A stretch of 64,000 bases of DNA from a virus (taxonomy: Duplodnaviria; Caudoviricetes), in IMG/VR virus record IMGVR_UViG_3300031993_000016. One strand, given 5' to 3'. Position numbers and translations under genes: made by a program. Numbering within the stretch: position 1 is the stretch's first letter; every line of letters starts with the position of its first letter. The notes under the pieces are model-generated. The model searched no databases. It was not told the DNA's origin and worked only from the letters and a program-made list of their open reading frames with translations. Positions 15,710-51,151 of this stretch are shown one piece after another.

Positions 15710-16981
15710 CTAAGCGATAGCAGTTGACACTAGAACTGTATCTCTTGCAGACAGTCTTGTTAAGTTATTTAATTTCGGCGTTTTGAAACCTTTCGGCATT
15801 GATGAAAAATCTATTTTGTTACCGCGTGCATTCATAAGAATTGCATATCCAGAAGACATCCTTCCTTGTATGAAATACTCTTTGCCAAAATATTTGACCT
15901 TATCAAATTTTCTGAAGCCACGTATCTTCCCTGTCGGAATTTTCTGCTGGCTTCTAATTCCTTTAGTTTGTTGATAATCTCCTTTAGATACACTCTTTTT
16001 AATATAGACATAGTTTGTTGCAAATAGAGGCTGTTTACCCTCAGATGCAATGACACATGCATCTAAATGGTGGTCTTTAACAATACCTTTCAACGCAAGT
16101 CTGTTAGCTTTTGTCACATAACCAAATGTTTCTGTTGCTCTTGAATATCTTTTTAACAATTGACAGCGAACACTATTCATCTGTGTAGCATACTTAAGTT
16201 GTCCTTTAGCTTTACCACCAAAATTAACTTTGATGCGACCTGCATGTAATGCAGAATGACAAGTATGACAAAGAGTAATCAGATTATCTGCTTCATCACT
16301 GCCACCTTGACTGCGATAGACGATGTGATGAACTTCTAATTTAGAATCTTTGTGTTTACCTTTACATATCTGGCACTTGTAGCTATCTCGATTAAGAACC
16401 CTTGCTTTAGTGTCTTCAAAGCCATAATTAGCGCCTTGCTGGTATCCCCAATGTTTTACTTTTTCATCGGCAAGAGCAGGATTCTTCATCAGATGGCAAT
16501 CAAATGTTGCTGTTTCTAAAACAAGCATCGATATAAGTAATATTGACTTGATATACTCAATCTCTTTGATATGACTGTTCAGTTTACTAATCATTGTAGG
16601 ACTAAATCGGTCTTTCTTGATGCTGTTTCTGCGATTGAGCCATCTCGCTTTGCGGTAGCGTGTTTTTCTGTTTCTGCGATTTCTACGATAGCTTGCTCGC
16701 TGTGTCATTTTGTCTGTGATATCATTTCTGACAATAACTTTTGACATATAAACAATCTTTCCGTCATTAGTAGAAACTGCTGCACCTAATGTTCCAGAAC
16801 CTGTATCAACCCCTAAAGTTAAACTTTGCGTATATTCTGTAGTATCGTAAGTTAACTTGATTGTAAATGGCTCTCGCTTCTTAACTTTTGCTTTGCCTTG
16901 TTTAAGCAATAATCTTGCTATTACATTCGTGCAAGGCATAAGCGGTTTGTTGTCTTTTGACAGAACATAAACCATATACAA
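15710..16981 (-). CDS. iscB: RNA-guided endonuclease IscB
   Basis: PLMP N-terminus; RuvC-I GVDTGS; Arg-rich bridge helix RRNRRNRKTRYR; RuvC-II LVLE; HNH CQIC...EVHH...NLITLCHTCH; RuvC-III HHLDA. Confidence 0.95.
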   Translation of the reverse strand: MYMVYVLSKDNKPLMPCTNVIARLLLKQGKAKVKKREPFTIKLTYDTTEYTQSLTLGVDTGSGTLGAAVSTNDGKIVYMSKVIVRNDITDKMTQRASYRRNRRNRKTRYRKARWLNRRNSIKKDRFSPTMISKLNSHIKEIEYIKSILLISMLVLETATFDCHLMKNPALADEKVKHWGYQQGANYGFEDTKARVLNRDSYKCQICKGKHKDSKLEVHHIVYRSQGGSDEADNLITLCHTCHSALHAGRIKVNFGGKAKGQLKYATQMNSVRCQLLKRYSRATETFGYVTKANRLALKGIVKDHHLDACVIASEGKQPLFATNYVYIKKSVSKGDYQQTKGIRSQQKIPTGKIRGFRKFDKVKYFGKEYFIQGRMSSGYAILMNARGNKIDFSSMPKGFKTPKLNNLTRLSARDTVLVSTAIA

Positions 16982-16994
16982 GTCCTCCTTGTAA

Positions 16995-17263
16995 ATACTC
17001 TGCTTTATGGCAGGTGATGCGTATTCTTATACTGTACCATATAAGAAATCCGACCTCCTCTCGACAATGATAATTAGGCTTTTTACACATATAACACAAG
17101 GCTGTTTTTACTCTCACCTAACTTAATGATATATGACAGAGCAACGGTCTGAGGCGACAACCGTAGGTGTCATGACCTAACTATCGTAGTTAAGATTTCT
17201 CTTAACTTAGTCTGTTGACGCATTTAAGAGAATCCCATTGGCTTTAGCCGATGGGTACGTCAA
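16995..17263 (-). ncRNA. omegaRNA (HEARO-like) scaffold of IscB
   Basis: Non-coding leader of iscB with TTGACG/CGTCAA stem, CAGACTAAG, CTACGATAG, GACACCTACGGTTG...GACCGTTGCTCTGTC and ATTGTCGAG segments; 3' boundary approximate. Confidence 0.8.
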
Positions 17264-17577
17264 GGATATATTGTTCTTTTGTAACAAGTTATCATATTTA
17301 TGTCGGAGTTGCATTCGCAAGTGCTGTCATTCATTGGAAAGAATGTTATCTGTTCTTCGGGTACCTGTAACTCCATAATAACTAGTCGTTTATCATTCTT
17401 TTCTTTGATGAAATTTCGAGCGTGTTGCTCTTGTAAAAAGAATGTTTTACGACCTGTAATCTCTCGTATGATATGTTCACGAATGTATGTAGTAACATCA
17501 TCTCTGTTACATACTAAGTAGCATGTTACAAATCTACCAGATGCTACAGATTTCTTCTTTTTGAATATATTAAACAT
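17260..17577 (-). CDS. Hypothetical protein; its stop codon lies inside the IscB element end
   Basis: ORF track; TGA overlaps TTGACG. Confidence 0.65.
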   Translation of the reverse strand: MFNIFKKKKSVASGRFVTCYLVCNRDDVTTYIREHIIREITGRKTFFLQEQHARNFIKEKNDKRLVIMELQVPEEQITFFPMNDSTCECNSDINMITCYKRTIYP

Positions 17578-17608
17578 ATGATCACCTTCACAATATATTT
17601 GTATGTAT

Positions 17609-17682
17609 CAGCCCTAGTTGGATTTGAACCAACGAATGCAGGAGTCAAAGTCCTGTGCCTTTAACCGCTTGGCGATAGGGCT
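17609..17682 (-). tRNA. tRNA-Gln(UUG)
   Basis: Acceptor AGCCCTA/TAGGGCT; anticodon arm CAGGA-CTTTGAC-TCCTG; T loop TTCAAAT; no encoded CCA. Confidence 0.92.
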
Positions 17683-17818
17683 ATTTTTGATATGGTGACT
17701 CAAAGCTATGCCTCCGCTACGTTTTATCTCCATATCTATTCGTCAAGTGTGTTGACCTTGACGACCTTACGGTGGTTTTTTACATATCGCATAACAACAC
17801 TTGCGGTATGAAGCTCTT

Positions 17819-17900
17819 TGCAGGTAGAGGGACTCGAACCCTCAAGCAAAATTGCGTGCGAGCTTAAATCGCATGTGTATTCCAATTCCACCATACCTGC
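17819..17900 (-). tRNA. tRNA-Leu(UAA)
   Basis: GCAGGTA/TACCTGC; TGCGA-TTTAAGC-TCGCA; long variable arm; GAGGG-TTCGAGT-CCCTC. Confidence 0.92.
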
Positions 17901-17911
17901 TTAAGTTTAAG

Positions 17912-18017
17912 GGCTGATGGTAGGATTCGAACCTACGATGTTCCACTATCAACAAGTTGATCAGTCTTGTATCACTTAGCTTCTCTAAGGCAGCTCGTCC
18001 ACTACTGCTACATCAGC
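17912..18017 (-). ncRNA. tRNA-like RNA with non-canonical anticodon loop and oversized variable region
   Basis: GCTGATG/CATCAGC acceptor; GCAG/CTGC D stem; GTAGG-TTCGAAT-CCTAC T arm; CTTAG-AGAAG-CTAAG in the anticodon position. Confidence 0.75.
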
Positions 18018-18021
18018 TTCG

Positions 18022-18102
18022 TACATCTGGAGGGACTCGAACCCTCAAGCTAACTGCGGCAGATTTTGAATCTGCTGTGTTTACCAGTTTCACCACAGAT
18101 GC
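18022..18102 (-). tRNA. tRNA-Leu(CAA)
   Basis: GCATCTG/CAGATGT; GCAGA-TTCAAAA-TCTGC; GAGGG-TTCGAGT-CCCTC. Confidence 0.92.
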
Positions 18103-18297
18103 GTGTTGACGGCTGTTTCTAAATAAGATCTAGGTTCAATTTAACCAGGAAAGGCAAGGAACTATGAAATCCTATAAAGCTGATTCAATCTACGTCCTGT
18201 ATCTTATCTAGACATTTAACTATTAACTAGCACCGCCTTGCTTGTTTCATATAACGATTTTAGCATTTTTTAGAAGAGGCTGTTACCTTATTTGGAA

Positions 18298-18600
18298 TGA
18301 CGAACCCATCAACTAAAGTTAATGGGATTTCGTGAGAAGTTTGTCAAAAGACCTTATTCTCACAGGCATCGCCAAGATGCCTTTATACAGTTACCAAAAT
18401 CGGTTTCTGCTTACATTTTCCTTATTTAGCAGGCATTTGTTCCCCAAATCATTACGCTCTGTTCTCGTCCTGTTGCCTCAAAATTTAATGTATAGAATCA
18501 AATCAATTGTGGTATTGCATCTGCTCTACGTTTTATGGGGTTTTACTCTGGACATTGGTCATTTAACTAACAAAGCAGTTAGCACCTCTTAGTTACGTCA
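18298..18600 (-). ncRNA. Orphan IS200/IS605 (TnpB-type) right-end / reRNA-like region
   Basis: Minus strand ends GAAATCCCATTAAC-TTTA-GTTGATGGGTTCGTCA; upstream hairpins GGCATC/GATGCC and GTGAGAA/TTCTCAC; no convincing ORF. Confidence 0.5.
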
Positions 18601-18736
18601 CAAACTATAACGAAATTACTATTTCAAAGCTTCGGAACATTTAGCTGTATACTCTCGAATGTATTCAAGAGCTTCACTGTAATTGCTAGATGTCAGATCA
18701 TTTACAGTAATTCTACGAACTTCTCATTAAATTGAT

Positions 18737-19114
18737 TTAGATCTTTGATGTATTTTTTATAATACACCGCTTGTCTTTGTTATATTTTCGATGAATCTTT
18801 CTATCCCTTCCGTCAGGTTTAGGTAAGTATCTTTCTAACAAAGTATCAAAATCTTGATTAGCTTCTTCTTCAATGAGCTTGTCTATATCTACATTACGAC
18901 GTGTGAGTTCTATTGCTTTAACTTTACCAGGAATTGCAAGTACTTCGCACGTGTCACCAATACTAACATATTTAGATACATCTTGAACAAATTCATCTGC
19001 GATGTTTGAGATATGAAGCAGATATGTAGATTCATCACTGAACTTAAGCACTGCCCCATATGGTTTGATTTCAATTACTTCCCCTAAATACCTTTCCCCA
19101 ATAGTAAAATGCAT
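18737..19114 (-). CDS. S1 RNA-binding domain protein (YugI/YabR-like)
   Basis: IGERYLGEVIEIKPYGAVL...LLHISNIADEFV.DV...VSIGD. Confidence 0.85.
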   Translation of the reverse strand: MHFTIGERYLGEVIEIKPYGAVLKFSDESTYLLHISNIADEFVQDVSKYVSIGDTCEVLAIPGKVKAIELTRRNVDIDKLIEEEANQDFDTLLERYLPKPDGRDRKIHRKYNKDKRCIIKNTSKI

Positions 19115-35758: not shown

Positions 35759-37576
35759 CTATACACGGAATTCATCAGGTCTATCTATCACTACAACATA
35801 TTCAGAAGACTTTCTAAAATGCGATTTCGACTTCAATTCTTCTACCACATTATCTTTATACTTCTCAGTTTTATCTACAACAAATACATATCGCTTACAC
35901 TTATAATGCTCTAATACAATATCAATCCATTCGTCACAAGTGTGAAATTCAGTTTCATTGTTATAGATTTCTTTTTTGTTATATGGTGGGCAGGTAAGTA
36001 GGCACGAGTATTCATAGTAGCTATCTAAAATGTTTTCAACAGTGACAGAAGCATTTGTTAAGCTGAAAAATTTTAATATCTCATGACTTTCAGATACTGC
36101 AGTTGAATTTAAATCTCGGCCTACATATTGTTTACCTGTAGAGCATACACCTAACAACCGTCCAGAAAATCCGGAAAACGGATCACAGATACAATCAAAA
36201 TCATTTAAGTATTTCAATGTTAAGTATTTAGCTAATATAGGATTAAACACAGACACTTTAGGTGCAATCTTAGATATGTTGAAACCGCTAAGTACTTTAG
36301 ATGGATCAACATCATTTTGATATATTAATCGGTTAGCTATACACTTCTTAAGCAATTCATCAGATTGCCATGCTTCATATGGAGATACATGACCATCGAC
36401 TTTACAGTGATAAATTGACGGATGAAACTTACGAATAACCGATATCCCCAGTTTGCAATACGGATTGTAAGATGTTGATGTATAGTCACACAGATGTGCA
36501 TAATCATAATAGAGTCGATCATCTGTGTAATTAGGGTACGGAAATTCAACAGACCTACACCAACTAAATATATGAGAATCATAATCAAATAAGTTATTAT
36601 CTATTTGCTTCAACATGTAAATCAAGTTAGATAATCCAGATTCAAAATCAGATTCTATTAACAACACAAATATATGATCATCTGGCACAAGTGAAACGCG
36701 AACATCATCATAATCATCTCGAACCTTCTCGCCACCAGGATCACTTATGTAAGAATGCCAATATATTCCATCACAGTCTATGAGCATCTTATATTTTGGT
36801 AAATACACATCAAATTCGTGCGAGCATGTACCATCGGTTAGCACATGATGCTCAACACAGTCAATGTTGAACTCTTGTAATATTGAATGTAATCGAGATT
36901 CCAGTTTGCTTAAGTTTTTAGAATTCCGTGATTGTTTAGCACGAAGCTCAGGGCACTGCATAGCATAAGGATAACCTGTGCGACTTATATTAGTTTGCAT
37001 AGTTTGCGCAATACATGCTGAACTTGTAACTGTATCGCGTATCTTGTCTCGTACTTCTGGTACCTGAGCAATATTAGTATATTTCGTCCCGTATTTCATT
37101 TGGATTGTTTTTATTTTAGCTGGTTCATTAGATATCGCTTTATCATGCAATAGCTGTCGAACAGAACTAGCTTGTGAAGCAACTTTAACACCATATTTTG
37201 CTAAACAGGTTTGTTCTCGGAGCTTATTTGAACATGCTTGAGAACAACATCTAATAGGGTCATATTCTAATTTTATTTCAACAGGAGTGCCGCATATAGG
37301 ACACGGATTAAAATGTTTATTGTCACAATAGCGTTGCATGCTACTTCTAGGTGCAAATAATTTACCGCATAGTTCACATTTCTTTAAAGTTTTAGCAATA
37401 GTTTGTTTACGAAGCTGTGCTGCACATTTTTTAGAACAGCATTGTTTAGGATGTTTATAATTCCATATGAAGCTAGATTGACATACAATACATCTTCGAT
37501 AATGAACATTGTTGCAATAAGCAGCAGTACCAACTCCTTCAAATGGTTGACCGCATTCTTTACAATATTTTATCAC
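35759..37576 (-). CDS. Zn-finger + Vsr/DUF559-like endonuclease + amino-DNA-methyltransferase-like fusion
   Basis: CxxC repeats; EFDVYLP...IDCDGIYWH; motif I DPFSGFSGRLLG...GRDLN; motif IV-like TCPPY. Confidence 0.75.
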   Translation of the reverse strand: MIKYCKECGQPFEGVGTAAYCNNVHYRRCIVCQSSFIWNYKHPKQCCSKKCAAQLRKQTIAKTLKKCELCGKLFAPRSSMQRYCDNKHFNPCPICGTPVEIKLEYDPIRCCSQACSNKLREQTCLAKYGVKVASQASSVRQLLHDKAISNEPAKIKTIQMKYGTKYTNIAQVPEVRDKIRDTVTSSACIAQTMQTNISRTGYPYAMQCPELRAKQSRNSKNLSKLESRLHSILQEFNIDCVEHHVLTDGTCSHEFDVYLPKYKMLIDCDGIYWHSYISDPGGEKVRDDYDDVRVSLVPDDHIFVLLIESDFESGLSNLIYMLKQIDNNLFDYDSHIFSWCRSVEFPYPNYTDDRLYYDYAHLCDYTSTSYNPYCKLGISVIRKFHPSIYHCKVDGHVSPYEAWQSDELLKKCIANRLIYQNDVDPSKVLSGFNISKIAPKVSVFNPILAKYLTLKYLNDFDCICDPFSGFSGRLLGVCSTGKQYVGRDLNSTAVSESHEILKFFSLTNASVTVENILDSYYEYSCLLTCPPYNKKEIYNNETEFHTCDEWIDIVLEHYKCKRYVFVVDKTEKYKDNVVEELKSKSHFRKSSEYVVVIDRPDEFRV

Positions 37577-37707: not shown

Positions 37708-38936
37708 TTAGACTCTGAATTCATCTGGTCGCATGTAAATCGCTCTTGAAATTACAAGTGTTGTCTGGACTTTTACAAGGCCGCCTTCCTGATTCATGGT
37801 ACCGTTACTAAGACCTTGAATCCAGACACCTGGACACTTTATTACATCTCTTGCATTACCTTGACCATCATATTTGATAAAATACGCCTGCCTCATGTAC
37901 TCAGACGGCAGACCCATTTTTTCTGTCACCGGATTGTATACCTGCTTGCGCCATGCACGTAAACTCTCAAGAACGTTTGGCTCACAATAGCAGTTAAGTG
38001 TCCAATCAACATCTGCAAATGAAACTTTTCCAGGGAACTTGATGATTCCATTTCCATAATGTACTGTGATTGAGTCTTGGTCTTCTTTGATCTCACCTAC
38101 TTCGTCTGTTGAGAGTGTAAGTAGGTCACTGAATTCTGTTGGGGAACTTCCGTCCATATTGTATCTAATATCTTCAAATAGATTCGTGACATCTATCCGG
38201 CCTGTTACGGCTCCTCTTATTTTCATAAGATGTAGAGACTATATCATCACCTCATGTTGTTATGGGGGCTCGGCGCTACCACACGATTTTGTGGACTATA
38301 GTCGTTGAACCTTCCTCAGATCTTAAGGCTTGGCTGCTGATTGTCTAATCCAACTACTTTTTAAGCATTCACATCTATCTTTCTAGATTATGTTGTAGCA
38401 AGTTGGCTCTAAAGATTTTCCAGCAATTCACCGAGTTATTCGAAACATATTACTATGTTAAGGGACTAGATAAGTTAATCCTGATCTCGAAGTTATTTTG
38501 TGTCAATGGGACGAAGTTGTCGATACCTAACCAAGTTTGTTACGATGGCTCGCTACACCATCTCTCTTGCTTTCACAAGACGTTCAGACTATATTATCAT
38601 CTTAATATTAAGATGCTCACCCCTTCGAAGACGCTTGTCCTCTACTCCTTTCGGATAGTCGTTGAACCTTCCCTTACAGGCTTGGCTGCTGATTGCCTAT
38701 TGTATACGTGTTTAGGATTTAACCTTGCACTATCTAGATAAATTTTTTCTACTTTCGTCACCATCACGTTTACATCTAAATTAGATATTGCGTTGTGGTT
38801 TATCTAGCTTTAAGGTGTTCCAGCAATTCGATGAGTCTTTTATCATACAGATTTCTCTATACGCATACCTTAGATCACTTTAGCACTTTAAAGTGTTAAA
38901 AATATGGTTTGTGCCCATATAAAGTGGACTAAACAT
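37708..38936 (-). CDS. Tail tube protein (T4 gp19-like), spliced: join(38902..38936, 38478..38531, 37708..38164), 181 aa
   Basis: Spliced MFSPLYMGTNHMLGIDNFVPLTQNNFEIRIYNMDGSSP...YGNGIIKFPGKVSF...W; AGGAGG RBS before 38936; exons total 546 nt, in frame. Confidence 0.85.
38165..38477 (-). mobile_element. Group I intron 2 (IA-type, 313 nt, no ORF)
   Basis: Exon ends in U, intron ends in G; P GAATTGCTGGAA 38418-29; Q AATCAGCAGCC 38332-42; R GGTTCAACGACTA 38299-311; S GATATAGTC ~38237-45; P1 GGAU/GUCC. Confidence 0.9.
38532..38901 (-). mobile_element. Group I intron 1 (IA-type, 370 nt, no ORF)
   Basis: Exon ends in U, intron ends in G; P 38818-29; Q 38684-94; R 38656-68; S AATATAGTC 38587-95; P1 CAUAU/GUAUG. 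Confidence 0.9.
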
Positions 38937-39103: not shown

Positions 39104-40509
39104 ATGAAGTTTTGCACAAATTGCGGCGCACAGCTACCTGAATCAAATCGTCAGGACGATGTCGATCGTGTGCACAGAAAGCAGCAGTATCTAAACGAGA
39201 AGCTACATGTTTAGCACGATATGGTGCTAGAAATGTGATGCATATTGATAGGTTTGTTAAGAAAATCCAGCATACATTCTTAGAACGATACAATACAAAA
39301 TGTGCTATGGATGTACCTGAATTCAAACAAAAACAAGAAGATACTATGATAAAACTATATGATGTAAAATCGTATGTGCTTACAGATGAATATATGCAAA
39401 ATGCACATTTTAGAGAATCTAATACGCAGAAAGCTATAGCATCTAAATTGAATCAGATAAATATTCAAACAGGGTCAGAACTTTTGCTAGATGATAAAAA
39501 ATTTGATATCCCTATCTTAGGCACAAACATATTACTGGAAATAGATCCGTCGTACACGCATAACATAATCGGGAATCACTGGAATAAGAAAGGGTTAGAG
39601 GAAACCTATCATCTAAATAAAACAGCAATTGCAGCATCGCATGGCTATCACTGTTTACACGTATTTGATTGGGATAACATAGACGAAATAACTAGTAGAT
39701 TATGCATAACACAGAAAATAGCAGCAAGAAAATGTAAGGTGATCTTCCACAATGAACCAACTCCTACAGTCAATTTAATATATGAAGATAAAGTCATTCT
39801 ATCTGTACAAGCTCAGTTATCAAATATAGCAGCATACGAATATGAATTAACAATGATGTTTAAACCAAACATACAAGTGGTTGGTGGTGTAAGTCGAGCT
39901 ATCAAGCATATCATGCAACATCTACACACAAATAAAATATTTATAAAGTGTGATTTGTCAAAATTTTCTGGTGAATGCTATGAGAAAGCTGGTATGAAAG
40001 CAGTTGCAATAATACCTCCACAAGAACATTGGTCTAAGAGCATGTATGAAATGCAAATAGATGATAAAATAAATGCTGAAAAACTAATACAAGATCATTG
40101 GTTACCGGTTTACGACTGCGGATATGTAATATATAGTTATGTTGATGGTTATCCTACACAAACATCTCAACCTTCATTAAAAGAATACTATCAAACTATT
40201 GCGAACAGCATATCTAAATCAAAAGAAAGATTATGTGACTTTTGTCATCAGCCATTTATACCAGCATCTAACAGACAACGATACTGTAAACGTGTGCATA
40301 AGAGAATATGCCCTGTATGCGGAAAAGAATATGTAGAAGATAATGTTGAAAATTTGAAACGACCTCCAGTTGCGTGTTCATATGCATGCAGGGTGAAGAA
40401 AACTCAATCCACTAGTCTTGAACGATATGGATGCACCGCACCTGGTAATTCTACGCAAGCCAGAGAAAAAGCTAGAGAAACACGGCGAAACAAGCACATC
40501 TACAACTAG
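39104..40509 (+). pseudogene. Zn-finger/Vsr-like nuclease/GNAT-like family gene with a 1-nt frameshift near 39150
   Basis: MKFCTNCG...NR continues as SGRCRSCAQK...RYG in the -1 frame into ORF 39235..40509; LEIDPSYTH; WLPVYDCG; Zn fingers also at the C-terminus. Confidence 0.7.
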
Positions 40510-45418: not shown

Positions 45419-46942
45419 TTAGGTTAAACTACCATATACATACACCGCTTGTCCGCAATCATAAACTGGTAACCACCCGTTATCTAACATGAGCTGCTCA
45501 TTAGAAGTACCTTTACCATAATTGGCACCAAATAACTGATCATAACCACGCTGATTAAGCAGATTCTGTGTGATCTTTTTATCATCTTTTGACCATATTT
45601 TATTAGGTTCAGCAATGTATGTCAATTGCATACCAATTGCTTCATATACATCCCCACGAAACTTTGCTAAATCGCAATATGATATAACAGAATCATTCAG
45701 ATGATCTGATCGAAAATGTTTGAATAGTTTAGACGCGCCTCCTATGATTCTATACCTTGAACGCGTACATAATCTAAGTAATTCAAAATTATACTTATTA
45801 TTATATCTAGGTTTTCCAAATGTCATCAATTGCATAAGCTGATTGTCATAATATAACCCATAACAAATCTCTTGCCCTTTACAACTACCCTGAATATGAA
45901 ATTGCGCTGTAAATTTATTAGCATCAGATTTAGATACCTGTCGAATTTCACAATTTCTTGCATAAATAGATGTCTTAGGTATTAGCATATTAAGAATATC
46001 ATCCCAATTATCCCAATCAAATACATGAATACATCTGTACCCATTATCTAAAGCAAGTTTAGTCTTAGTTAAATGATAATTAGGATCTAATCCATCAGAA
46101 TCCCAATGATTACCAAAAGAATTATGCGTATATGTAGGATCAATTTCAATGAGTATGTCACCTGATTTAAGATCATAAGAACATTTATCTATGTGAAATT
46201 CAAATTCAAATTCAATGTTATTCGCTTCAAGCACGTCTCCGAAGCGTTTATTTATATTAGAAATAACAGATGAAGCATTTCGGCATTCGTCTCGCATACA
46301 ATTATAAGGTACACCATATTTATCTAAGCAAACTTGGGTAATCTTTTGCTTTACAATAGGATTTTGCGATGGATTAGAATAACCCGTTTCACGTAGCCGA
46401 TTTGATACAATCTTTGAGCGAATTTCAGGTACAGCTAACACGTTTTCGTAGCCGTATCTTTCTAAATTGGTTTGTTTGGCCTTTTCATGTATTGTATCAC
46501 ATTGAAGCGGGACTCTTACACCATAATGAGATTCAACCGAATCCTGTTGTTTAGAATGAATTTCAGATACTTGCATTGGGTTATCTACACCATACGTATC
46601 TTGAAAATGTTGTTTTATTTTTGATTGAATCAAGACAGATTTACTAGGATTATCAACACCATAGCGTTCTATACAAGTAGCTCTTATCCTTGCTTTAACT
46701 TCTTGCAACTGATTTGGATTATCTACACCATATTTCAATTGCATAGTTTTCTTACGAGATAGATTACCTAATTGTTGCCCACATTTCAATGAACAAGTTT
46801 TAGATGTGTATGGAGGTTTTCGTATAAAAGTTTCTCCACATACACAACAAACAGAAGTGTGCTCAGATTTACACACTTCTGCTCGTTTACTTTTAGCAAC
46901 AAATTGTTTACCACACAATTTACATATCTTAATATATTCCAT
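45419..46942 (-). CDS. Zn-finger + YGV.NP repeats + Vsr-like endonuclease + Mom-like GNAT domain (Hef-like)
   Basis: CKLCG; (K/R)YGVDNP repeats; YDL...IEIDPTYTH; YARNCEIR...HIQG...ELLRLC...GGASKLF...WLPVYDCG; RBS favours ATG 46942. Confidence 0.75.
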   Translation of the reverse strand: MEYIKICKLCGKQFVAKSKRAEVCKSEHTSVCCVCGETFIRKPPYTSKTCSLKCGQQLGNLSRKKTMQLKYGVDNPNQLQEVKARIRATCIERYGVDNPSKSVLIQSKIKQHFQDTYGVDNPMQVSEIHSKQQDSVESHYGVRVPLQCDTIHEKAKQTNLERYGYENVLAVPEIRSKIVSNRLRETGYSNPSQNPIVKQKITQVCLDKYGVPYNCMRDECRNASSVISNINKRFGDVLEANNIEFEFEFHIDKCSYDLKSGDILIEIDPTYTHNSFGNHWDSDGLDPNYHLTKTKLALDNGYRCIHVFDWDNWDDILNMLIPKTSIYARNCEIRQVSKSDANKFTAQFHIQGSCKGQEICYGLYYDNQLMQLMTFGKPRYNNKYNFELLRLCTRSRYRIIGGASKLFKHFRSDHLNDSVISYCDLAKFRGDVYEAIGMQLTYIAEPNKIWSKDDKKITQNLLNQRGYDQLFGANYGKGTSNEQLMLDNGWLPVYDCGQAVYVYGSLT

Positions 46943-46953
46943 ATTGATACCTC

Positions 46954-48852
46954 CTACATAGGTATAATAAGAGAGTAATCTAGATGATGTAGGCATCTAG
47001 AAACACTGGCCGGTTGATTAGAGGAAGGCGTGTATTCCCATCGGATAACTCCTGAGTCAAATACACGACCATATCCATGAGCTGTCATTATTTCAACTTC
47101 AGTATTGTGTTCGACATCAATAGTATCATCGCGAAGCAGCTTCTTAAGATTAGATTTCTGACATGTTACTCGATTATAATAGCATTCAGAATTCGGATCA
47201 ACCCATACGTATCCCGGATCTGATCGATGTATTTCAACAAAGCCTAAAATCTTGTAAAGATTTCCAGAAGTAGTGGCAATATCGGAAAAAGAAACGATTT
47301 TATCAGGATACCAATGTCTACAGAAGTAGCTGAATAGTTTGCTTGCACCTCCTACAACATTGTAATTTAACTTAGAACAAAATCTAGACAACTCCCAGCT
47401 ATCTTCATTGTTGATCCGACCACTTAAATTTCGCATTTTACCAAATGTCATGAGAGAAACTAATTCATCGTTATCATAAAGACCTAACCGTATGGAACAC
47501 GTAGTAGGACCTTGTCTATGATTGATGCGAAGAAACTCTCGAGCATCTGACCAACTAACTTCTCTTAGGTGCAAGTTCCGTGCAAATAGTTTACGAGTTG
47601 TGTTACCTAATGCATTTCGTAACATGGAAACCATGATATCTTTATGATTAACCCAATCGTATCCAAATACATGTATAAGTCGAATACCTGCTTGCTGTGC
47701 CAAATCTGACTTATCCTTATGATAAGATTTAGGTACAATATTACCTTCATGCATGAATGCAATATCGGAATTGTGCGTCCATGTAGGATTACACTCAATT
47801 CCAAGCTTATAATCCGGCAAGTAAATATCAATTTCATAAGGGCTTATGATAGATCTAGAATGCGGTATAATAACTGCATCAGGTACGGTTGTATGTATGA
47901 TGTTGGTGATATCTTGCTCCATATTAGATATGTTACATTGTACCAAATCATGTAAACAGTATTTTACTATGTAATATGATATAGTTGTGTCACAGACTCC
48001 AGTAGATTCGGATAGTTCCTTATAAGTTGGTTTATGATCAAATTGAGTTAGTATGTAATTTTTAGGATCTGATTTAAATTGTTCGTAGTAGTTATATCTA
48101 TCGGGATTTACTACAGTTGTTTTCAGATACTCCGGTGAAAATATATAAGCAGGGCCTCCATATTTTTTAAAGTTAGTTTCAGTGCGTTGTTTGATGATTT
48201 CATCAGCTTGTGCTGCATATTCTACACCATAACGCTTTAAGCATGTAGCTTTCACTTTAGCTTGAATATCTTCATTGGATAGCGCATTCTCATGACCATA
48301 ACGTTCTAAATTAGTGGATTGTATATGTTGTCGTAACTCCTCAGATTGCATAGGTGATGCAACTCCATATTTATCTAGCATACCTTGCACCATTCGAGCC
48401 CGTATTTCCGGATCTTTAGAATAATGATCTACACCATAAAGTTCTAAACTATGTTGTTTTATTCTTTCTTGAATCTCAGCACTTTGAGATAAATTATCTA
48501 CACCATATCGAGATTTTACAGTCTGATGAACCTTTTCTTTAATATCACTGCGCTGTAGTGGATTAGCTGCTCCATATCGTTCTAAATTAGTAGCTTCTCG
48601 TTTCTGTTGAGCTTGTAATTTAGCTTCAGCAGATCTATTTTGATGTCCCTCGGAAATAACAATCTTTCGGCATTCTGAACATGTTCGAGGCCCATATTTC
48701 ATATAATTTACATAAGATTCTTTTACTAACAACGGTTGGCCGCATCGAGCGCATGGTCTATAATGATCATCTCCACAAGACTGTGCTTTTGCAGAATGCG
48801 CCATAAAAACTTTACCACACCATACACATTTTCTTTCACCATAGTTTCGCAT
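46954..48852 (-). CDS. Zn-finger + YGV.N repeats + Vsr-like endonuclease + Mom-like GNAT domain (Hef-like)
   Basis: CVWCG; about seven (R/K)YG repeats; EIDIYLP...IECNPTWTH; HRQG...ELSRFC...GGASKLF...VFDSG. Confidence 0.75.
   Translation of the reverse strand: MRNYGERKCVWCGKVFMAHSAKAQSCGDDHYRPCARCGQPLLVKESYVNYMKYGPRTCSECRKIVISEGHQNRSAEAKLQAQQKREATNLERYGAANPLQRSDIKEKVHQTVKSRYGVDNLSQSAEIQERIKQHSLELYGVDHYSKDPEIRARMVQGMLDKYGVASPMQSEELRQHIQSTNLERYGHENALSNEDIQAKVKATCLKRYGVEYAAQADEIIKQRTETNFKKYGGPAYIFSPEYLKTTVVNPDRYNYYEQFKSDPKNYILTQFDHKPTYKELSESTGVCDTTISYYIVKYCLHDLVQCNISNMEQDITNIIHTTVPDAVIIPHSRSIISPYEIDIYLPDYKLGIECNPTWTHNSDIAFMHEGNIVPKSYHKDKSDLAQQAGIRLIHVFGYDWVNHKDIMVSMLRNALGNTTRKLFARNLHLREVSWSDAREFLRINHRQGPTTCSIRLGLYDNDELVSLMTFGKMRNLSGRINNEDSWELSRFCSKLNYNVVGGASKLFSYFCRHWYPDKIVSFSDIATTSGNLYKILGFVEIHRSDPGYVWVDPNSECYYNRVTCQKSNLKKLLRDDTIDVEHNTEVEIMTAHGYGRVFDSGVIRWEYTPSSNQPASVSRCLHHLDYSLIIPM
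46974..47014 (-). repeat. Conserved ~40-nt element, copy B
   Basis: ACCGGCCAGTGTTTCTAGA-N11-TCTAGATTACT. Confidence 0.85.
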
Positions 48853-48970: not shown

Positions 48971-51151
48971 TTAGCTTAATGAACTAAGATCAATACCTGC
49001 ACCGGCAGGTAATGCAATAAGATCTACGTAAATATCGTTTATAACTCCATTTACTAGGAGCCAAATTTTTCCAATAACAGTGTTAGCATTAACATGATCT
49101 AATTCATCAATGTCCGCTGACATCTGAACACGATAGCCATCGATTGCACCAACATTCTTCATTGTATCAAGAAGTGGTGTCACACCTGCATAAAACTTAT
49201 TATAAGCCTGACCATTATTATATTGGAATGTGATGCTTATTCCGCATTTGTAAACTACATCTTCTACTGCATTTACTAAGAAACGAGTTGAAAGATTTGC
49301 AAGTGCCTGATAAGTTGCAGGAGGTACTTCAAATAATGTTGAGTTACCCCAGATGTTTGTGCCGAGGTCTGGGATTGTTGTAAGTACGTTTACAGATACT
49401 CCGTCAAGTTTCTGCCATTTATCAAGTAATTTCTTTGGTACTGTGTAATCAAGTTTTCCAATTCTTACATTGTGTTGTCTATTTGTTGGAAGTGCCCATT
49501 CATACTGTGTAGGCTGATTGAGGATCTGTGCTCTTTGTATCATAAGTGCTGCGAATGAAGGAGATGCTTCACTCATTCTGCTTGTACCTACATACTGGAA
49601 TTGTGTCCATGGTGCAAAGAATCCACAATGTGTGTGGAAGAGTGATCCATTTACATCAAGTGCTGCGTTTACAGGTGTTACACGAGCTAACATCTGTACA
49701 TAACCTGCACGATCTGGATTAGCTTCATCCTCAATGTGAACGAACTTTCTTTCTACCATATGCGGTACATCAATGTAACCTGTTGCACATCTGCTGTAGT
49801 ATGCTACGTCCATTATCTTAAGGTTAAGCGGAGAGACTGGAATTGGACAAGATCCTGATGATGGTGTAGGATAATATGTACTGATGATTGTAGAATTATC
49901 TGTATACATGAAATAATCTTGATCATCCCAACCTGGGCTTATTACACGATTCGGGTTGTAAGAAAGTTTGTCTTTGAGAAGATCAAATACACCACCTACA
50001 GGCTGTCCATTTGAATCAACATAAGTACCGCCTACAAGATGTGTAAATAACCATTCTCTATAGTATAATGAACATTTTGTATCGTCATCAAGTGCAGCTT
50101 GTACAGTTGAATCAGCAACAGCGGTTGGATACGTATAAGTAGCTGAATTTGCAGCTACTTGGTAAGCTTCTGCCCAATCATATCTAGGTTTTGCAATGTT
50201 TTCAAATGACATTGTTCCGCTAGTATATGTTGTGATATAATCTGTACCAGCAGTAGCTGTTGTACTTCCAAGTATAGCAGCTGTACCAGTTGATGGAACT
50301 TCATCCCACTTTGTAGCGTCCCAGGCACCTGTTGTATCATCAGCCTTGCATTTATATACGTTACATTCATGATATACAAGTGCATCTTTTGCATATGTAG
50401 CAGTTGCATCAAATGCTGTAACCCCTGCAGTAGATACTACAATGTCCGCAGAAGTTGAAGACTCATCAACTGTACCAGTGATATTTGTAATATCCCAGAA
50501 CTTAGATTCAACTTCTTTGTAGTAAAGAATACTGTCTGTTGAATTAGCAGCATTGAATACAAGTGTCTTTGACTCAGCTGCAGTTTTTACACCACTAGAA
50601 TCTACAATATAAGTAATAATGTTCCAATAGAACTTAGTTGTTTGTGACTCCCTATCATAATAAGCAACTTTGCTAACTACAATCTGGAGATTATTTCCAA
50701 ATGTTCCAGGATACTTTGCTCTGAAACTGATAGTAGCTGCACTATCTGTATTATTCTTATACTGATACTGCGTAAAGCTGCCCTGTGCATAAGTTCCAGG
50801 GCACAGACGACATACAAGTATATCATAACCAGCAGTGAGTAATGTAGTTGCTATCTGATATGAATAATCTTTTGCAAGTCTATAACCTGCAGCAGGTCCA
50901 CGATAAGTAGATACAAATGCATCAAGTCCTGCCTGTGTAGCAGGAAATCGCTGCCAAGCGGTTTGCTCAAGCATATCGCTTACAGCATCACCATATCCAG
51001 CCCCACTTGGCTGAATACCAGAAGCAGCAGTTGGATCAAAGTATCCAGGACCCCAGCAAGATGTAATTGGAAGTGCTACGGTAGCATATCCACCATCTCC
51101 AACAGCCCAAGAATAATTTGTGCTGATTTCATTTATGACAATTTTAGCCAT
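48971..51151 (-). CDS. Tail sheath protein
   Basis: WGP; AKYPGTFGNNLQI; IWGNSTL...LSTRFL...FQYNN...GAIDGYRV...GKIWL C-terminal sheath domain. Confidence 0.9.
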   Translation of the reverse strand: MAKIVINEISTNYSWAVGDGGYATVALPITSCWGPGYFDPTAASGIQPSGAGYGDAVSDMLEQTAWQRFPATQAGLDAFVSTYRGPAAGYRLAKDYSYQIATTLLTAGYDILVCRLCPGTYAQGSFTQYQYKNNTDSAATISFRAKYPGTFGNNLQIVVSKVAYYDRESQTTKFYWNIITYIVDSSGVKTAAESKTLVFNAANSTDSILYYKEVESKFWDITNITGTVDESSTSADIVVSTAGVTAFDATATYAKDALVYHECNVYKCKADDTTGAWDATKWDEVPSTGTAAILGSTTATAGTDYITTYTSGTMSFENIAKPRYDWAEAYQVAANSATYTYPTAVADSTVQAALDDDTKCSLYYREWLFTHLVGGTYVDSNGQPVGGVFDLLKDKLSYNPNRVISPGWDDQDYFMYTDNSTIISTYYPTPSSGSCPIPVSPLNLKIMDVAYYSRCATGYIDVPHMVERKFVHIEDEANPDRAGYVQMLARVTPVNAALDVNGSLFHTHCGFFAPWTQFQYVGTSRMSEASPSFAALMIQRAQILNQPTQYEWALPTNRQHNVRIGKLDYTVPKKLLDKWQKLDGVSVNVLTTIPDLGTNIWGNSTLFEVPPATYQALANLSTRFLVNAVEDVVYKCGISITFQYNNGQAYNKFYAGVTPLLDTMKNVGAIDGYRVQMSADIDELDHVNANTVIGKIWLLVNGVINDIYVDLIALPAGAGIDLSSLS

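Follow-up and report, generated by a model that had tools for sequence, protein, structure and literature searches.

Small group I introns without open reading frames very probably split a gp19-like tail tube gene of a Caudoviricetes virus

Where does a tail tube gene begin when the open reading frame (ORF) called for it opens inside a ribozyme? The question is raised by the gene at 38936-37708 on the minus strand of IMG/VR virus record IMGVR_UViG_3300031993_000016, a stretch of Caudoviricetes DNA of 64,000 nucleotides (nt) that is referred to here as the window. Read from its letters, this gene is very probably a gp19-like tail tube gene split by two small, ORF-less group I introns of the phage type (IA-like); the gene model appears secure and splicing very likely. 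In the ORF track, an ORF of 172 amino acids (aa) begins at ATG 38226, inside intron 2, and the frame that opens further upstream at ATG 38936, behind a ribosome-binding site of the same kind as those ahead of exon 1 in related loci, soon meets stop codons in the unspliced sequence. When exons of 35, 54 and 457 nt are joined, an open frame of 546 nt and 181 aa results, and residues 1-52 of its product are identical to those of the uninterrupted 181-aa homologue P0015 (the handles P and L denote related proteins and related loci, respectively). The N-terminus of P0015 reads MFSPLYMGTNH-M-LGIDNFVPLTQNNFEIR-I-YNMDG, and the three pieces bounded by the hyphens are encoded apart in the window. The two residues between them fall on split codons (M as AT^G and I as AT^A, with ^ marking a splice site), both introns thus following the AT of a codon.

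Since the pieces of P0015 map to three separate stretches, the limits of both introns can be placed to the nucleotide (Table 1), and the 3' end of intron 2 is fixed further by homologues that read ...FEIR-I-YNMDG. A spliced alignment in which a U must precede each intron and a G must end it recovers exactly the same two pairs of limits. The 3' tail of intron 2 (..UUUGAAGAUAUUAG) resembles the exon sequence of some relatives, and a model with this tail as coding sequence (..NLFEDIR..) was considered and rejected: its junctions lack the U and the G, and the tail motif GAAGAUA..G recurs at the 3' ends of related introns at other sites. No ORF of note was found on the coding strand within either intron. 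A protein search with the translation of exon 3 returned 781 relatives, among whose best 120 the commonest length is 181 aa (49 proteins); an uninterrupted N-terminus is present in 61 of these 120, and most of the others begin at an intron break.

Table 1. Coordinates of the tail tube locus in the window, and positions of group I introns within the tube coding sequence in the window and its relatives
Feature	Position in window	Strand	Details
Ribosome-binding site AAGGAGG	38950-38944	-	7 nt ahead of the exon 1 ATG at 38936; read from the sequence
Exon 1	38936-38902 (35 nt)	-	MFSPLYMGTNH + 'AT' of codon 12; equals P0015 residues 1-11; spliced alignment agrees
Intron 1	38901-38532 (370 nt)	-	RF00028 match 38883-38564, 71.8 bits, E 3e-16; limits from uninterrupted homologues
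Intron 1, internal guide sequence	38871-38864	-
Intron 1, P7 strands	38660-38655 / 38592-38587	-
Exon 2	38531-38478 (54 nt)	-	G + LGIDNFVPLTQNNFEIR + AT; exact match to P0015 residues 12-30
Intron 2	38477-38165 (313 nt)	-	RF00028 match 38487-38214, 90.8 bits, E 6e-22; limits from uninterrupted homologues
Intron 2, internal guide sequence	38468-38463	-
Intron 2, P7 strands	38303-38298 / 38242-38237	-
Exon 3	38164-37708 (457 nt incl. stop)	-	body of the tail tube protein
Tube-gene 3' end repeat (RPDEFRV + stop)	35760-35781 and 37709-37730	-	direct repeat D4, 18/22 nt; first copy fused to the end of the 605-aa ORF
Downstream 605-aa gene	35759-37576	-	phrog_3339 'homing endonuclease' + phrog_559; DUF7487-type
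Upstream divergent nuclease-like gene	39105-40509	+	Pfam DUF7487; phrog_3339, E 9e-18
Group I site after nt 23/24			L024, L027, L039, L040, L041, L042, L049
Group I site after nt 30			L012, L020; L053 and L054 by 3'-end similarity
Group I site after nt 35			window, L049, L050, L051
Group I site after nt 48			L040
Group I site after nt 51			L025
Group I site after nt 62			L049, L050
Group I site after nt 72			L028
Group I site after nt 75			L012, L025
Group I site after nt 89			window, L049-L054, proteins P0002-P0014

The two Rfam matches lie on the minus strand, cover the full length of the RF00028 model (1-253) and exceed its gathering score of 50 bits; no further group I matches were found with Rfam in the 64-kb window. 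Both matches end at P9, and the true 3' ends are located further on, past an extra P9.1/P9.2 hairpin and a short tail, at G 38532 (intron 1) and G 38165 (intron 2). Helices were assigned by hand from the Rfam alignments and each was checked by script. In P1 of intron 1, CAUAU^UUU pairs with AAGGUAUG, with a U.G pair at the cut and an inserted hairpin; in P1 of intron 2, GGAU^UA pairs with UAGUCC and the last exon U again stands opposite a G. Intron 1 further contains P2 (GAAA loop), P3, P4, P6/P6a (GUAA loop), P7, P7.1, P7.2, P8, P9 (GAAA loop) and P9.1, and the start of exon 2 could take part in a P10 of 4 bp (UUAG/CUAA). Intron 2 contains P2 (GUAA loop), P3, P4, P5/P5a, P6/P6a, P7, P7.1, P8, P9 (GAAA loop), P9.1 and P9.2. 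All helices assigned from P1 to P9.2 are complementary in both introns, save for one position in P8 of intron 2. In-frame stops occur 7 codons into intron 1 and 8 codons into intron 2. When 13 related introns from 7 insertion sites were folded together with RNAalifold, P2, P3, P4, P6 and P9 were recovered, and 20 of the 31 consensus pairs keep pairing through two-sided changes.

By BLASTN, the intron cores are 70-80% similar to introns of Staphylococcus (Kayvirus and others), Bacillus and Enterocloster phages. They resemble the phage subgroup IA2, which includes the introns of T4 td/nrdB/sunY, SPO1, Twort and Bastillevirinae (PMC11878797), in core motifs, extra P7.1/P7.2 hairpins (P7.1 in intron 2, P7.1 and P7.2 in intron 1), GNRA loops on P2 and P9, small size and an early in-frame stop, a likeness judged by these features and by BLASTN. 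The introns of the window stand apart in occupying a structural gene and not a gene of nucleotide or DNA metabolism. The initial annotation of this locus had proposed two ORF-less group I introns in a tail tube gene around a 54-nt exon, with U/G splice junctions and P1 pairings, insertion after the AT of a codon, an in-frame 181-aa product and an ORF track that starts the gene wrongly, all of which agrees with the present results; P0015 also carries the residues of exons 1 and 2, the part that tube homologues were expected to share. It had in addition described the cores of the two introns as near-identical. This holds for segments of the core (18 nt identical, 22 nt at 95% and 39 nt at 79%) and not for the introns overall, which are about 60% identical.

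Is the interrupted gene indeed a tail tube gene? The product is predicted to be a gp19-like tail tube protein by modelled fold and by similarity to a member of PF06841. Exon 3 matches phrog_4542 'tail tube protein' (E 4e-7), and tblastn aligns it at 28-29% identity with the tail tube proteins of Bacillus phage SP-15 and Listeria phage LIS04. In SP-15 the match covers 88% of the query at 28% identity, and the record of this phage assigns the protein to PF06841 (Phage_T4_gp19). The AlphaFold 2 model of P0015 matches gp19 of T4 (5w5f, 5iv5) and the tube of Klebsiella phage KP1 with probability 1.0, as well as many other tube and Hcp-like proteins, and its BFVD matches are entries named 'tail tube protein'. 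The protein has the size of gp19 and is the only tube-like ORF found in the window, which would suit the main tube subunit rather than a tube-like paralogue of the baseplate or terminator; its position would suit this role less. In SP-15 and LIS04 the tube gene directly follows the sheath gene, whereas in the window about 10 kb of nuclease-like and small genes separate it from the sheath gene (48971-51151) on its upstream side. A PDB sequence search with the tube profile gave no tube match, an NCBIfam profile search no useful match, and megablast with the complete locus as query matched none of the phage records.

To place the two introns in a wider context, 43 IMG/VR loci and nine Logan/ENA loci were examined by means of exon-peptide regular expressions, spliced alignment and Rfam. 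The tube gene is uninterrupted in about 30 loci, and the remaining loci carry group I introns; counting the window, at least nine insertion sites are in use, all of them in the first 89 nt of the coding sequence (Table 1). The richest case, L049:4562-6519, has four group I introns (404, 369, 326 and 313 nt) in this stretch, separating exons of 24, 11, 27, 27 and 457 nt that give a perfect 181-aa frame. L050 carries three introns, and in L051 the two introns are laid out as they are in the window; like L049, both loci can be spliced in silico to a perfect 546-nt ORF. In none of the examined loci was an intron seen in the other 457 nt of the gene. Conservation of the DNA was considered as a cause of this clustering, but at 68-75% in the intron-bearing stretch and 57-76% elsewhere in the gene it is no higher where the sites lie, and does not account for them by itself.

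Two further observations concern the same stretch. A small ORF-less group II intron (RF00029, RF02004; ends GUGCG...AU) is present after nt 61 in L032:3397-3971 and L026:~1-418, one base off a group I site that is occupied in other phages. Additionally, the introns after nt 23/24 (L024:3541-3960, L041:3542-3960, L049:4562-5000; also L027, L039, L040 and L042) have a single in-frame junction, ..AUGGG(G)^U...G^(U)ACM..., so that the U pairing with the G of their conserved guide (UGCCC) would be the first base of the intron rather than the last base of the exon. Cutting at the canonical position would shift the frame and lead to a stop after about 16 codons; exon 1 and its ribosome-binding site are nonetheless conserved in all seven loci.

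The distribution of introns among these relatives points to mobility, since presence and absence vary at identical sites. Intron 1 of the window is 91-94% identical and intron 2 is 96-97% identical to the introns at the same sites in L049 and L050, while identity falls to 74% in exon 3 (54% at third codon positions) and to about 50% in the 300 nt ahead of the gene. Introns that are so much more similar than the exon beside them thus move between phages, which argues for recent transfer between diverged phages. Movement between sites is likewise indicated. The intron of L028 at nt 72 is about 80% identical to intron 2 of the window at nt 89, each with a guide fitted to its own site (CAGUUC for GAAU^UG in L028 and UAGUCC for GGAU^UA in the window); in L025 the two introns share 71% identity; and most target sites end in GAU or AAU. 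From this combination of similar introns, differing guides and similar sites, it follows that the intron family has hopped between neighbouring sites. The introns are selfish mobile elements of one intron family.

A number of observations weigh against this interpretation of the gene and its introns. The Pfam search with exon 3, PF06841 included, returned no match at E <= 0.01, and the AlphaFold 2 model of P0015 is of low confidence (predicted local distance difference test score 56; about 70-80 in the core, residues 83-175). P8 of intron 2 contains one C.A mismatch that is absent from L049 and L050, and P10 of this intron is limited to 3 bp. The high identity of the introns could partly reflect structural constraint. 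Finally, the identity of exon 3 rises next to the intron, but it also does so in comparison with the uninterrupted L046, and this gradient was consequently rejected as a specific signal of co-conversion. The C.A mismatch and the short P10 speak for an alternative of decay, with relic introns in a pseudogene. This is scarcely credible: all other helices are intact, the exons keep their frame and conserved residues in the window, L049, L050 and L051, no second tube-like ORF was found within the 64-kb window, and the same introns are 91-97% identical in diverged phages.

If the gene is split as proposed, each transcribed intron would fold into its ribozyme, whose P1 would present the U.G pair that ends the exon. 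GTP would attack at this position and the freed exon would then attack after the terminal G, so that the exons are joined into the mRNA for the 181-aa tube protein. The stops 7 and 8 codons into the introns would keep ribosomes out of the ribozyme cores. Could the middle exon also be left out? A join of exon 1 to exon 3 (AU^A) would stay in frame because the two introns share their codon phase and near-identical cores, and it would yield, beside the normal product, a variant of 163 aa without residues 12-29. The equal phase and the 54-nt (18-codon) exon are read from the sequence, and in the accounts of Twort orf142 cited here, the similar introns 2 and 3 skip the 23-nt exon between them (PMC10136302, PMC11878797). 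For the window, however, such skipping is very doubtful: the two introns have different guide sequences, conservation within the family is among the highest at residues 12-29 (with L13, G14, D16, P20, L21, T22, N24-E27 and R29 invariant), and a product without them is probably non-functional.

Phage group I introns are mostly found in genes of nucleotide and DNA metabolism (PMC11878797, PMC3984707). The best-known exception is orf142 of Staphylococcus phage Twort, later recognised as a tail tube gene, in which three self-splicing group I introns are described (Landthaler & Shub 1999, as cited in PMC11878797 and PMC10136302). It is the closest known case, and the window gene is the same kind of thing: as far as orf142 is described there, both are tube genes of large myoviruses with several small ORF-less group I introns, and in both a pair of very similar introns flanks a short exon, of 23 nt in Twort and 54 nt in the window. 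The two differ in where the introns fall: in Twort, close to the 3' end of a Herelleviridae tube gene of 142 aa; in the window, in codons 12 and 30 of a gp19-like gene of 181 aa. Moreover, splicing and exon skipping are reported as demonstrated for Twort, while splicing in the window is deduced from the sequence. In an Rfam scan of Twort NC_007021, three RF00028 matches come right behind the opening 121 codons of the gene that follows the tail sheath gene. The tube introns are followed, within 16272-18967 (L056:4273-6968), by the 437-aa ORF018, which is annotated as 'intron encoded nuclease' and lies outside the introns. A motif of ORF018 (..LDFYF..AIEYMGRQH) recalls the nuclease-like motif of the window; no significant similarity was found by BLASTP between ORF018 and the 605-aa protein of the window.

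What moves the introns? Nuclease-like genes stand on both sides of the tube gene (Table 1), and their nuclease activity is taken from annotation. The upstream gene consists of a zinc-ribbon piece at 39105-39214 (MKFCTNCG..) and, in another frame, a 424-aa ORF from 39235; a single frameshift near 39160 would account for the two frames. The downstream 605-aa protein has no match in a Pfam search, whereas the 424-aa gene does match DUF7487. The 605-aa protein contains zinc ribbons, a middle motif D..(I/L)(D/E)xDG..WH and a C-terminal domain with DPFSG and CPPY. Foldseek with its AlphaFold 2 model returned matches of the C-terminal domain to S-adenosylmethionine-dependent methyltransferases and no others; as a lead only, the middle part lies near DUF559/Vsr-like Atlas clusters, at a score of 0.85. 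The 605-aa homologues of L049 and L050 end in ..VIDR or ..IIDN, without the RPDEFRV tail. Given the repeat in the window and the absence of this tail from the homologues, the 605-aa gene inserted into the 3' end of the tube gene, bringing its own copy of that end. Some 450 nt separate the resulting scar from the introns, and in L049 the second nuclease-like gene closes on a similar one (..FEDFR). Two further DUF7487/phrog_3339 genes (525 and 632 aa, with weak Mom-like matches) are located at 45419-48852, directly after the sheath gene, and sister genes of the 605-aa gene carry a Mom-like domain in place of the methyltransferase-like one.

In collaborative homing, an ORF-less intron and a separate nuclease gene spread together, as described for the cyanophage S-PM2 psbA intron with F-CphI, the DNA polymerase intron of T3-like phages and the ICP1 terminase (PMC3984707, PMC6083498, PMC10448857). 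The layout of the window is of this kind, with ORF-less introns and free-standing annotated endonuclease genes abutting the tube gene on both sides, and the initial annotation had suggested that these genes mobilise the introns: one or both DUF7487 proteins would cut uninterrupted alleles at or near the intron sites, and repair would copy nuclease gene and introns together. The free-standing ORF018 directly behind the tube introns of Twort would fit such a route. The relatives lend it no positive support. Among 31 non-redundant loci with enough flank, DUF7487/phrog_3339 neighbours accompany 13 of the 14 interrupted alleles and 12 of the 17 uninterrupted ones (Fisher p 0.18, relatedness ignored), in the same two positions (antisense upstream and sense downstream) beside interrupted and uninterrupted alleles alike. 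The upstream neighbour shows no association with interruption (p 0.72) and the downstream one a weak trend (12/14 versus 8/17, p 0.057), so that joint inheritance of intron and endonuclease gene is not borne out across these loci. The closest uninterrupted relative, L046, has the downstream gene, whereas the closest intron-bearing relative, L054, with an intron at site 89, lacks it, and L039 has an intron without any nuclease-like neighbour. The nuclease lineage beside the same introns also differs, being of H605 type in the window, L049, L050 and L053 and of H525 type in L051 and L052. In known collaborative loci the nuclease cuts the intron insertion site; here, the same nuclease family flanks uninterrupted alleles too, the downstream scar marks the 3' end of the tube gene, rather than the intron sites, as the place of insertion, and the upstream gene of the window is frameshifted. 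Collaborative homing is thus rather unlikely. The flanking genes fit better with the picture of homing endonuclease gene (HEG) islands, in which exchangeable nuclease genes stand on both sides of essential genes (PMC10448857), than with a dedicated partnership of intron and nuclease. The tube gene is likewise bracketed in most loci, and the lineage of its neighbours turns over among relatives; the islands described there involve T5orf172 or IPA-HNH families, while the family in the window is DUF7487, in which the C-terminal domain is Mom-like or of the methyltransferase type. The introns may hitch-hike on breaks that the flanking genes make.

The crowding of sites admits another explanation, according to which insertions at nt 23-89 are kept because each breaks the recognition site of a nuclease of rival phages, such that interrupted alleles survive mixed infections. 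Across about 55 loci, a span of 66 nt holds nine group I sites and a group II site while the other 457 nt hold none, DNA conservation is no greater in this span than elsewhere in the gene, and a divergent nuclease gene is often found about 150 nt upstream of the tube start codon, all of which would be compatible with such protection. However, many phages keep uninterrupted alleles beside such nuclease genes, the cleavage site is hypothetical, and a single intron family that hopped locally among similar RAU^ sites could equally have produced the cluster. Protection is accordingly judged improbable, and so is the bolder combination in which the first 90 nt are a selected landing pad where insertions destroy the targets of rival nucleases, together with a lineage at nt 23/24 that splices one base off the canonical U.G pair. 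For the preferred reading of the introns as selfish elements, the most likely route of spread would be recombination in mixed infections, possibly aided by breaks from the bracketing nuclease-like genes of the island. New neighbouring sites sharing the RAU^ motif would probably be colonised by reverse splicing or illegitimate repair, followed by a change of the guide sequence.

The splitting by introns hides an essential tail tube gene from automatic annotation. This structural gene is mis-annotated in the window and in about half of its database relatives, as truncated proteins of 149-174 aa, and its true N-terminus would be missed by gene callers, protein clustering and proteomics searches. 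Public entries that start at intron breaks include P0016, P0025 and others, as well as BFVD A0A8S5Q740, a 170-aa 'Tail tube protein [Myoviridae sp. ctTRu92]'. Taken with Twort, the locus shows that small ORF-less group I introns have repeatedly targeted the tail tube genes of unrelated myoviruses, and further interest lies in the density and variety of insertion sites in this family. The gene family forms a natural series, with zero to four introns, micro-exons of 11-54 nt, nine sites in 66 nt and an unusual 5' junction in one lineage. It could serve to study the movement of ORF-less introns to nearby sites, the way in which tandem ribozymes cope with very short exons, and a possible role of neighbouring nucleases as drivers. 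Elsewhere in the window, on the minus strand at 17049-17263 and 17609-18102, a HEARO RNA (RF02033, 101.9 bits) adjoins three tRNA genes.

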